From Candidatus Baldrarchaeum yapensis (GTDB lineage: Archaea > Asgardarchaeota > Baldrarchaeia > Baldrarchaeales > Baldrarchaeaceae): a stretch of 32,000 nt of DNA. The DNA lies in NCBI GenBank assembly GCA_016840465.1, contig JAEOSH010000007.1, forward strand, positions 1 through 32,000, in the 5' to 3' direction. Shown here piece after piece: positions 6,875 to 10,069 of the stretch; within the stretch, counting starts at the first letter, position 1, and each line of letters opens with the position of its first letter. The notes under the pieces are model-generated. The model did not search any database. It was not told the DNA's origin and saw only the letters and a list, made by a program, of their open reading frames with translations. Both the position numbers and the translations under genes were made by a program.

Positions 6875-7684
6875 ATGCCATACTGCCAGTACTGTGGTAA
6901 AGAGATTGTTCTTCCATTTGTATGTAAGTACTGTGGAGGCATTTTCTGTGAAGACCACAGGCTTCCCGAGGCCCACGATTGCCCATATATGCCTCGTGTC
7001 AAAGAATGGGTCATTCGTCCTACAGTTTACGTTCCGGTCCCACCGCCACCACCCGCCCCAGCACCACAGATAGTTGAAGTAAAGAAAGCTAGATTCAGCA
7101 GCACTGAGATAATGCACCTATTTATAGGATGTATACTGATATTGCTCGTAGGATTCTCGTTATTCATGGATCCACGTTTCATCTTCGGCGTAGAACCGTT
7201 TATGGCATTCTTACTCGCGTTATCGTTCATACCGGCTTTCTTGTTTCATGAACTCGCTCATAAGTTCGTTGCCCAGAGGTATGGGTGCTGGGCAGAGTTT
7301 CGTCTCATAGAATGGGGCCTCATCTTAACATTACTTTCAATTCTCCCCTACTCTCCCCTTAAAATCATAGCACCGGGGGCCGTGATGATAGCTGGGGGGT
7401 ATGATAGGGACGTTGTTGGGAAGATAGCGCTCGCGGGTCCCTGTATAAACCTGGCGTTGGCTCTCATCTCATTGCCCCTGTACTTCATTTTCGCCACAAA
7501 TCCGATAATTGCAGGGCTGATGAGGTTTAACATCTACCTTAACAGTTTCTTAGGTCTCTTTAACATGTTGCCACTCGGAATACTGGATGGAAAGAAGGTA
7601 TTCGACTGGCGACCCGACATCGGAATCATTACGCTTGCAGCTCTCGCGGCTCTCTTTGGAATCTCAATAATGTATCTTTTGTAG
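6875..7684 (+). CDS. AN1-type zinc finger fused to an M50 site-2 protease
   Basis: N-terminal C..C(10)C..C....C..H......HDC AN1 pattern, Pro-rich linker PVPPPPPAPAP, TM helices, HELAH, and FNMLPLGILDG (NPDG motif). RBS GGAGG. Confidence 0.88.
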   Translation: MPYCQYCGKEIVLPFVCKYCGGIFCEDHRLPEAHDCPYMPRVKEWVIRPTVYVPVPPPPPAPAPQIVEVKKARFSSTEIMHLFIGCILILLVGFSLFMDPRFIFGVEPFMAFLLALSFIPAFLFHELAHKFVAQRYGCWAEFRLIEWGLILTLLSILPYSPLKIIAPGAVMIAGGYDRDVVGKIALAGPCINLALALISLPLYFIFATNPIIAGLMRFNIYLNSFLGLFNMLPLGILDGKKVFDWRPDIGIITLAALAALFGISIMYLL

Positions 7685-7825
7685 CAATGTATCTCAAACG
7701 TACCCCTCCCTGTAACGATTCCTTTATATCCCGTCTTCCGTTACTTAAGAGTAAAGGAGAACTGAAAATGTCAAATTCAAATGCAGAGAGGCCTGTGATT
7801 CTCTTTACATGGTGGGGGTGCAACT

Positions 7826-10069
7826 TTGGCAGTTAAGGAAATTCAACTGCGAGTTGCCGAAGCATTACAGAATGATGTCGGTAGAGGAATTGTTAGGATA
7901 GACCCGGACGCCATGGACGAATTGGGGATTTCTTCCGGAGATATAGTTGAAATTCACAGTAAAAAGGTCACCGGGGCCATGGCACTGAGGGGATACGCAA
8001 GTGATAGAGGAAAGAGAATAATCAGAATGGATGGTCTCATAAGGCTGAACGCTGGGACAAGTATTGGAGAATATGTGAGAGTAAGGAAGGCAAGGTTTAA
8101 GCCCGCTCGCAGGGTCATTCTCGCACCTGCTGAAAAGGGCTTAAAGGTAACAACATCCGGTGATGTCCTGAAGAGAAGTTTGCTCGGCAGGCCTGTGAAG
8201 AAAGGAGATCTTGTAAGCACGGCAGCTCCGATTAGGCACACCTTTGATACGTTCTTCGGAGGATTTTTCGGATCCGTGCCATTCAGTCTGAGCGAAATGA
8301 GATTTGTAGTTGTATCCACTCAACCGACGGGCATCGTACAAATACAGCACGACACCGTAGTTGAAATAGTTCCCGAAACCTCTGAGGTCTCGAGAGGTAT
8401 TCCGACGGTCACATACGAGGACATAGGAGGACTGCACGAGGAAATCCAAAGAATAAGGGAAATGGTTGAACTACCGCTGAGACATCCCGAGTTGTTCCAG
8501 CGATTGGGAATAGATCCACCAAAGGGAGTATTGCTCTACGGGCCACCTGGTTGCGGAAAAACGCTACTGGCAAAAGCTGTTGCAAACGAGTCTGATGCCT
8601 ACTTCATCCACATAAATGGACCCGAAATTATGAGCAAGTACTATGGAGAGTCCGAGAAAAGACTAAGGGAGATATTTGAGGAGGCAAAGAACAACGCTCC
8701 GAGCATAATATTTATAGATGAAATTGATGCAATAGCGCCTAAGCGAGAAGAGGTTACTGGAGAAGTAGAGAGACGAGTAGTTGCGCAACTGCTTGCGCTA
8801 ATGGATGGGCTTGAAAGTAGGGGTCAAGTTATAGTAATTGGTGCAACAAATAGACCTAATGCTCTCGACCCCGCCCTCAGAAGACCAGGAAGGTTCGACA
8901 GGGAAATAGAAATAAAGGTGCCCGATAGAAAGGGAAGGAAGGAAATACTGCAGATTCACACGAGAGGGATGCCTCTCGCCGAGGATGTAGATCTAGACGA
9001 ACTCGCAGACAGGACGCATGGATTTGTTGGAGCAGACCTTGCAGCACTATGTAGAGAAGCTGCTATGAACGCCCTTCGCAGAATTCTTCCGGAGATAAAC
9101 TTAGAAGAACCGGAAATACCATCCGAGGTCCTCGCAAAACTTAAAGTTACTAAAGAAGACTTTGAAGCCGCCCTCAGAATGGTAGAACCCTCTGCGTTGA
9201 GAGAAGTATTGTTAGAAATTCCGAGGGTGAGATGGAGCGACATAGGAGGACTGGAAGAGGTAAAGGAGGCGCTTAGGGAGGCCGTTGAATGGCCTCTCAA
9301 GCATCCCGAAATGTTCAAGGAGTATGGAATTAGGCCACCAAAAGGAGTGCTTCTCTACGGTCCTCCGGGATGTGGAAAGACTCTACTGGCAAGAGCGGTT
9401 GCAACAGAAAGCGGAGCCAACTTCATAGCGATTAGAGGCCCTGAGGTTTTCTCAAAGTGGGTTGGTGAATCCGAAAGGGCCATAAGAGAGGTGTTCAGAA
9501 AGGCACGTCAGGCGGCCCCATGTGTAGTATTTCTCGACGAAATTGATGCATTGGCCCCAAGAAGAGGACTGTGGGAAGGATCACGAGTGCACGAAAACGT
9601 TGTTAACCAACTTCTCAGTGAGATGGATGGTCTTATCGAATTGCGTGGTGTTGTGGTCATAGGTGCAACTAACAGACCTGATATACTAGATCCTGCGCTC
9701 TTAAGGCCAGGCAGATTCGATCGCTTGATATTCGTACCTCCACCCGACAAGAAGGCGCGTATTGAAATCTTCAAGGTACACACGCGAAATATGCCACTTT
9801 CTGACGACGTCGACTTCGAGTATCTTGCTACAGTAACTGAAGGATATAGCGGTGCAGACATAGAGGGAATCTGCAGAGAAGCTGGACTAAATGCTATGAG
9901 AGAAGCAATAAAATCGGGTAAAAAAGTGAAGATATCGATGAGGCACTTCGAAGAGGCGTTAAAGAAAGTGAAACCCAGCATAACTTCAGAACTCATAAAG
10001 CAATACAAGCAGCTTGCAGAGGGAATGATGGGAAGGCAAATGAAGTTGGATCTGCCCTATATGACATAA
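7826..10069 (+). CDS. cdc48: Cdc48/VAT-family AAA+ ATPase
   Basis: N domain ([10 protein letters not shown]), two AAA modules each with GPPGCGKT, Walker B FIDEID/FLDEID and RPGRFDR. TTG start after GGGGGTG. Confidence 0.97.

Follow-up and report, generated by a model that had tools for sequence, protein, structure and literature searches.

A 32,000-nucleotide stretch of a Candidatus Baldrarchaeum yapensis contig (hereafter the window) carries a gene for an AN1 zinc finger fused to a site-2 protease of the M50 type (AN1-S2P; 269 aa; positions 6875–7684, + strand). It is followed on the same strand, after a 141-bp spacer delimited from the sequence (7685–7825, +), by a gene for Cdc48 (747 aa; 7826–10069, +), exactly as the first-pass annotation of this DNA had described. 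We find that AN1-S2P and Cdc48 genes appear to be neighbours far more often than expected by chance in two Asgard lineages, the classes Baldrarchaeia and Thorarchaeia; the adjacency is real, is confined to these two classes and is not an operon. The reading that we favour, with a probability of about 0.5, is that of an old, loose gene neighbourhood combined with an AN1 finger that would, by analogy with eukaryotic proteins, dock on an AAA+/20S proteasome machine, this docking being putative. The module resembling endoplasmic-reticulum-associated degradation (ERAD) that the first-pass annotation had proposed survives as a lineage-restricted, orientation-free neighbourhood with a paralogue swap; as an operon, as a link to the downstream geranylgeranyl-reductase (GGR)-family gene, and in its use of AN1 as a known Cdc48 binder, it fails.

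AN1-S2P and Cdc48 are neighbours in Baldrarchaeia and Thorarchaeia

In 41 related genomes we compared where the AN1-S2P and Cdc48 matches lie, and the flanks were read over up to 10 kb on each side at 80 reference-genome loci and over about 8 kb on each side at 43 further Asgard loci. Cdc48 lies beside AN1-S2P in all five genomes of the Baldr order, namely the one carrying the studied locus (G000) and four others (G001–G004), these same-order relatives being deposited as 'Candidatus Baldrarchaeota' and 'Candidatus Odinarchaeota' metagenome-assembled genomes (MAGs). All four relatives have a deacetylase gene, then AN1-S2P, then Cdc48 on the opposite strand, the last two being convergent and about 100–150 bp apart; AN1-S2P followed by Cdc48 in direct tandem is found, within the order, in the studied species only. 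In Thorarchaeota, Cdc48 stands 0.7–4 kb from AN1-S2P at every one of the 20 loci with enough flank, which represent 12 genera (three further contigs end too early and were left out of this count). The pair is divergent at 19 of these loci and tandem at one, in genome G321, where the order is S2P, an Hsp20-like gene and Cdc48.

Proximity is thus seen at 25 of 25 loci in two related Asgard classes, with one paralogue swap, and the linkage that these classes share is of single origin, the rest of the family being without it. Since the pair is convergent or divergent in the relatives, co-transcription is not a conserved feature and the pair is not a conserved operon: the genes converge in G001–G004, diverge at 19 of 20 Thorarchaeota loci and do not adjoin at 97 other loci. 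The neighbourhood survey suggested along with the first-pass annotation therefore bears out proximity to Cdc48 in the Baldr and Thor lineages, and neither a wider linkage nor a conserved orientation.

Within the Baldr order, the conserved co-oriented partner of AN1-S2P is not Cdc48 but the polysaccharide-deacetylase-family gene on its other side (248 aa; 6059–6805, +; Pfam Polysacc_deac_1, E 2e-7), which lies about 60 bp 5′ of AN1-S2P on the same strand in five of five genomes.

The locus itself lies on contig C30 of a MAG of 2.27 Mb that is 96% complete. The junction between the protease gene and cdc48 is covered by contigs of four public DNA runs, several of which may be the source sample; the contigs of three of them span the junction fully, and the fourth runs through all of the spacer and 18 bases into cdc48. 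An assembly artefact at the M50–cdc48 junction is ruled out by these contigs, and the layout is therefore real and no binning artefact.

Two Cdc48 paralogues hold the same position

The Cdc48 gene of the window encodes a double-psi-barrel N domain and two AAA modules, D1 and D2. It scores 1197 bits with TIGR01243 (cut-off 803) and matches CDC48_N, CDC48_2 and two AAA domains with their lids. Trees built first with 13 and then with 36 Cdc48 sequences united the convergent neighbours of the Baldr order with the Thorarchaeota neighbours in a single clade, which we call B (support 97/94); the tree sample held no clade-B member from the Odin-, Loki-, Heimdall-like and other families. In most clade-B proteins the C-terminus is a canonical HbYX tail (LYA, GYV or AYV), by which AAA+ rings dock on the 20S proteasome.

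The Cdc48 at the studied locus belongs in these trees to a different clade, A. Its tail reads ...LPYMT and that of its orthologues ...SYLA, with a Tyr at −3 and no penultimate Tyr. The orthologues in G001 and G002 are 81–82% identical to it and lie in another context, with no S2P or GGR gene beside them. The clade-B copy that the studied genome has is elsewhere, at contig C21:10255–11907, probably continued at C7:30946–31497 and split across contig ends. The ancestral neighbour was probably a clade-B Cdc48 with an HbYX tail; in the studied genome B would then have moved away. A clade-A gene, with an unrelated GGR-family gene after it, now stands downstream, so that two different Cdc48 paralogues hold the same position beside AN1-S2P in sister lineages.

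An immediate Cdc48 neighbour would be expected for about 0.3% of genes, assuming three copies among roughly 2,300 genes, and the swap is the one observation that is hard to ascribe to inherited synteny. Alternatively, the ancestral locus may have held both paralogues. A chimeric Cdc48 produced by recombination between A and B was also considered and is ruled out; the protein is A-like in every stretch of 60 residues, over its whole length, so the swap did not come from recombination inside the genes.

Some further features of these Cdc48 genes were recorded. The clade-B copy of the studied genome ends in ...QFYIS, which is not a canonical HbYX tail, unlike those of other clade-B proteins, and about 2 kb beyond its part on contig C7, on the downstream side, there is a GGR-family paralogue. 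The clade-A orthologue in G002 ('Baldrarchaeota MAG_95', contig C9, L113:7204–9568, −) is split into two overlapping open reading frames (ORFs) of 292 and 509 aa, which is a frameshift or an assembly error. In Thorarchaeota, a gene of about 145 aa lies directly 5′ of Cdc48-B, with a gap of 5–17 bp at L124:10634–13283 (+), L122:5167–7811 (−) and L129:9277–11926 (+). It is conserved at 20 further Thorarchaeota loci and gives weak, sub-threshold Hsp20 and ArsA_HSP20 matches (Pfam E 0.025–0.04); no homologue of it was found in the studied genome.

Inherited synteny as an alternative

Several observations weigh against the favoured reading. Cdc48 was found within 8–10 kb at none of 77 loci from Bathyarchaeia and Nitrososphaeria (Thermoproteota) and at none of 20 loci from 11 other Asgard families; its absence near AN1-S2P at these 97 loci means that the family works without the linkage. 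The genes that recur near it at the 77 Thermoproteota loci have housekeeping roles (ribosomal protein S10, Mre11/Rad50 and a HAD hydrolase), and AN1-S2P of Thorarchaeota heads top6B–top6A, a context unrelated to proteostasis. The linkage in the Baldr and Thor lineages, being of single origin, could be neutral retention of synteny, and the Cdc48-A of the studied locus lacks the canonical HbYX tail. Finally, binding to Cdc48 itself is not known for any AN1 finger of eukaryotes (PMC5035049, PMC11047754).

On this ground it is quite possible, if not our preferred explanation, that there is no functional link to Cdc48 at all, and that the locus reflects inherited synteny and one chance rearrangement. 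The finger would then serve the protease itself, either as a substrate trap or as a gate and regulator of the active site, in the manner of the regulatory PDZ or CBS domains borne by other S2Ps (PMC9263693), and the enzyme would be a signalling protease. Most of the AN1-S2P family having no nearby Cdc48, the unconserved orientation of the pair, the single origin of the linkage and the heavy rearrangement of the locus between Baldr families are all consistent with such an account. It is less easily squared with the replacement of one Cdc48 by another paralogue at the same spot, for which a random gene would have roughly the 0.3% chance estimated above, or with the retention of the linkage across 12 Thorarchaeota genera despite local inversions and insertions. 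Moreover, all characterised AN1 fingers work with the proteasome or AAA ATPases (PMC5035049, PMC11799193).

Conserved proteostasis neighbours were looked for in Thermoproteota and rejected as a candidate, housekeeping genes recurring instead, together with a signal-peptide peptidase at nine loci. This presenilin-type peptidase lies two genes from AN1-S2P at 9 of the 77 loci, for example at L063:11287–12240 (−), and it brings two classes of intramembrane protease into proximity.

Transcription of cdc48 and the GGR-family gene

The Cdc48 gene has a TTG start preceded by a strong ribosome-binding site, GGTGGGGGTG, at 7811–7820, and a TATA-like TTTATAT lies in the spacer at 7724–7730, about 96 nt before that start. 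On reading the sequence, no clear oligo-T terminator was seen in the spacer. An Rfam scan of 5000–12500 gave no match, RNA folding of the 141-bp spacer revealed nothing unusual (z = 0.02), and a scan for sigma-70 promoters and intrinsic terminators, models that are not applicable to archaea, yielded nothing useful. From these sequence signals it is likely that cdc48, together with the GGR-family gene, is driven by a putative promoter of its own and is transcribed separately from AN1-S2P.

The GGR-family gene (408 aa; 10071–11297, +) encodes a FAD oxidoreductase of the geranylgeranyl-reductase superfamily and is one of four paralogues of that superfamily in the genome. Its GTG start at 10071 is one base past the Cdc48 stop, and the reported coupling to cdc48 holds at this locus to that extent; it is not conserved, no GGR gene being found after the orthologous Cdc48 in G001 or G002. 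The protein passes the superfamily model TIGR02032 only (180 bits, cut-off 159) and falls far under the lipid-reductase equivalogs NF041080 (98.7 bits, cut-off 580) and NF041160 (71 bits, cut-off 780). The label 'lipid-saturating GGR' given earlier is therefore not established.

It is very unlikely, in our judgement, that AN1-S2P, cdc48 and the GGR gene form a dedicated co-transcribed module in which AN1 engages the N domain of this one Cdc48 to recruit it and lipid saturation is included. The co-orientation of the genes, a 141-bp spacer without a clear terminator and the GGR start one base past the Cdc48 stop would fit such a module, as would the tandem in the Thorarchaeota genome G321. However, the tandem layout is unique to the studied species within its order, the clade-A orthologues in G001 and G002 are next to neither S2P nor GGR, and Cdc48 has its own ribosome-binding site and a TATA-like box ahead of it. 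The GGR gene has three paralogues and scores below the lipid-reductase models, and the elements that bind Cdc48 in eukaryotes (UBL, VIM, UBX and SHP) do not include AN1 (PMC5035049, PMC11047754).

Further downstream in the window, a gene for a B12-binding radical SAM protein (11926–13575, +) has a second copy, 80% identical, at C6:7191–8696 of the same genome.

An intact AN1 finger on a minimal site-2 protease

The AN1-S2P ORF begins with ATG, with GGAGG 10 nt upstream. Its AN1 finger (residues 4–38; 6884–6988, +) matches zf-AN1 (PF01428) with 49.8 bits and E 3.7e-13, against a Pfam cut-off of 27.9 bits, and all eight zinc ligands (C4, C7, C17, C20, C25, H28, H34 and C36) are intact. Their spacing, C-x2-C-x9-C-x2-C-x4-C-x2-H-x5-H-x-C, fits the AN1 pattern C-x2-C-x(9–12)-C-x(1–2)-C-x4-C-x2-H-x5-H-x-C, and the eight ligands are invariant in a 39-sequence alignment of the family. 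In a profile search this finger was the sole AN1 match of the whole genome, which is without an AN1-rhomboid. The modelled finger superposes on the AN1 domain of Cuz1 (5ij4) with a root-mean-square deviation of 1.3 Å over 40 residues, at 40% identity.

The protease part matches Peptidase_M50 (PF02163) with 31.1 bits, above the cut-off of 27.2. The zinc-binding, catalytic HELAH motif (residues 125–129; 7247–7261, +) falls inside a helix spanning residues 118–135 of the AlphaFold2 model, and H125, E126 and H129 are invariant in the same 39 sequences. So are N230, P233, D238 and G239 of NMLPLGILDG (residues 230–239; 7562–7591, +), the second S2P signature. Both motifs are intact, as had been claimed; the second is properly NxxPxxxxDG, one residue longer than previously written. 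In site-2 proteases the Asp of this signature supplies the third zinc ligand.

The AlphaFold2 model, built on the 39-sequence alignment, has a mean predicted confidence (pLDDT) of 89. Its membrane part resembles the solved S2Ps RseP, SpoIVFB and MjS2P with Z scores of 9.2–9.5, the best among natural proteins, and the top Foldseek match of the model is MjS2P with a probability of 1.00. By its family membership the protein is an intact, minimal site-2 (M50) metalloprotease, and proteolysis is predicted.

The Pro-rich tether of the finger is also present, as residues 54–64 (7034–7066, +). It is part of a flexible linker between finger and first membrane helix that is modelled with low confidence (pLDDT 51–60 over residues 41–70), and neither the length nor the sequence of this linker is conserved among family members. 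The finger is probably cytoplasmic, because Lys and Arg residues precede the first membrane helix and the finger needs a reducing, zinc-loaded compartment.

A widespread family with four layouts

The AN1-S2P fusion is not new, and the protein belongs, as an ordinary member, to a widespread archaeal family that is already catalogued. A search of 5.8 billion protein clusters returned 2845 homologues (E ≤ 1e-3). Both Pfam domains are present in nearly all of the 120 best, which belong for the most part to Bathyarchaeia, Nitrososphaeria and Asgard MAGs. The labels among the matches listed include 'AN1-type zinc finger domain-containing protein' and 'site-2 protease family protein'. AN1-S2P matches are present in 306 of 400 Asgard genomes. 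Burroughs, Iyer and Aravind reportedly described prokaryotic AN1 fingers on membrane peptidases (Mol Biosyst 2011), and a search of the literature available to us found no paper on AN1-S2P fusions or on an archaeal AN1–Cdc48 link.

Four layouts were observed. In the first, that of the studied protein, AN1 is fused N-terminally to S2P. In the second, seen in Borrarchaeum (family f15; L142:7707–8684, −), AN1 follows M50 at the extreme C-terminus (residues 286–321), and this reversed order suggests that the two parts were joined there independently. The third, in family f21, consists of M50-only frames of about 203–226 aa, AN1 being matched separately further downstream. In the fourth, found in the Loki-like family f9 (L156:7742–9832, +; also L157 and L158), AN1-S2P is followed 150 bp downstream by an AN1/rhomboid-like gene of 310 aa, whose AN1 finger is the better conserved. 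Pfam Rhomboid matches this second gene only at E 0.013, and a language-model atlas assigns it to 'Peptidase S54 rhomboid' clusters with 0.94. That AN1 stays with the protease in all four layouts argues that finger and protease function together.

A putative docking site for an AAA+ machine

The eukaryotic precedent for contact between AN1 and Cdc48, on which the first-pass annotation leaned, had been over-read. Cuz1 and ZFAND1 bind Cdc48/p97 through a C-terminal UBL domain and not through AN1 (PMC5035049, PMC11047754). The AN1 finger belongs to the proteasome side: binding of Cuz1 to the proteasome depends on zinc and on the AN1 domain (PMC5035049), and in the structure of ZFAND5 with the proteasome the AN1 finger is lodged between the large and the small subdomain of the ATPase domain of Rpt5 (PMC11799193). 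Because the eukaryotic finger is a proteasome-side element seated on Rpt5, its archaeal homologue would be a handle for a proteasomal AAA ATPase, and by analogy the archaeal counterparts of that target would be PAN and the D1 and D2 modules of Cdc48. A complex prediction for the AN1 finger (residues 1–48) with the Cdc48 N domain (residues 1–190), run with our own alignments, scored 0.01 (mark, 0.32), which speaks neither for nor against binding; the N domain is possibly the wrong target, because it is the AAA module of Rpt5 that the ZFAND5 finger binds.

In the mechanism that we favour, the protease would cut membrane-spanning segments, and the tethered AN1 finger would offer a cytoplasmic docking site for an AAA+ unfoldase/20S proteasome machine, with either Cdc48 or PAN as the unfoldase. 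Docking would be akin to that of eukaryotic AN1 fingers on the proteasomal ATPase, and the docked unfoldase would take over the released or exposed fragments. All of these interactions, and the direction of the hand-over, are ones that we infer; an ERAD-like link is plausible.

Docking on PAN or on the 20S proteasome and not on Cdc48, with the adjacency no more than an indirect reflection of a proteostasis regulon common to both, appears unlikely to us. It is true that, among archaeal proteins, PAN is the nearest homologue of Rpt5, the seat of the ZFAND5 AN1 finger (PMC11799193), that the family abounds in lineages where it has no Cdc48 linkage, and that the Thorarchaeota Cdc48 neighbour forms a unit of its own with the Hsp20-like gene. 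But PAN or proteasome genes were not among the recurrent neighbours at the 77 Thermoproteota loci, and none was noted at the Asgard loci examined. The sole proteostasis gene found recurrently near the AN1-S2P family is Cdc48.

A wider proposal, which we regard as rather doubtful, is that the Asgard AN1 finger is a general handle coupling intramembrane proteases, both S2P and rhomboid-like, to Cdc48/20S or PAN/20S, as a ubiquitin-independent forerunner of ERAD. On that proposal, the neighbourhood of AN1-S2P and Cdc48-B in the Thor and Baldr lineages, with the paralogue swap, would be its genomic trace. If the AN1 docking of our favoured reading is true, the archaea closest to eukaryotes would already couple membrane cleavage to extraction and degradation, and the proteasome-side role of AN1 would predate ubiquitin-based ERAD. 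The analysis singles out the lineages in which the genes are linked (Thorarchaeia and Baldrarchaeia), the paralogue concerned (Cdc48-B, with its HbYX tail) and the interface to which structures from eukaryotes point, which would be the AAA module and not the N domain.

Comparison with known systems

Compared with the archaeal AN1-S2P family, the studied protein has the same two domains in the same order, and the same invariant zinc ligands, HExxH and NxxPxxxxDG. It is 38–53% identical to members from Baldrarchaeia, Thorarchaeota, Bathyarchaeia and Nitrososphaeria. The protein itself is undistinguished, and all that is particular to this genome is that its gene stands in tandem with, and upstream of, a clade-A Cdc48. 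With the solved S2Ps MjS2P (3b4r), SpoIVFB (8vjl) and RseP (7w6x, 7w6z) it shares the core fold over 129–149 residues at 18–22% identity, and the catalytic motifs are common to all of them. It differs from them in being minimal, with no PDZ or CBS domain and with a probably cytoplasmic AN1 finger instead.

The AN1 fold is common to the archaeal protein and to both Cuz1/ZFAND1 and ZFAND5, and ZFAND5 in the proteasome complex 7qxw was matched as well. These eukaryotic proteins are soluble and act with the proteasome and Cdc48/p97, whereas the archaeal protein is membrane-embedded and lacks UBL, UIM and A20 domains alike. Where the Cuz1 subfamily has its LDFLP motif, the archaeal sequence reads EIVLPF.

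RHBDL4 recruits p97 through a VCP-binding motif and ubiquitin binding, neither of which is evident in the archaeal AN1-S2P. In the RHBDL4–p97 ERAD route, the cytoplasmic part of an intramembrane protease recruits a Cdc48-type unfoldase for cleaved membrane proteins (PMC13580321). The likeness is one of concept only, RHBDL4 being a rhomboid serine protease and so of another protease class. An archaeal AN1-rhomboid protein is RhoII of Haloferax volcanii. In the AN1-rhomboids, RhoII and the f9 gene, a tether likewise joins the AN1 finger to an intramembrane-protease fold at its cytoplasmic end, and it is the membrane domain that differs.

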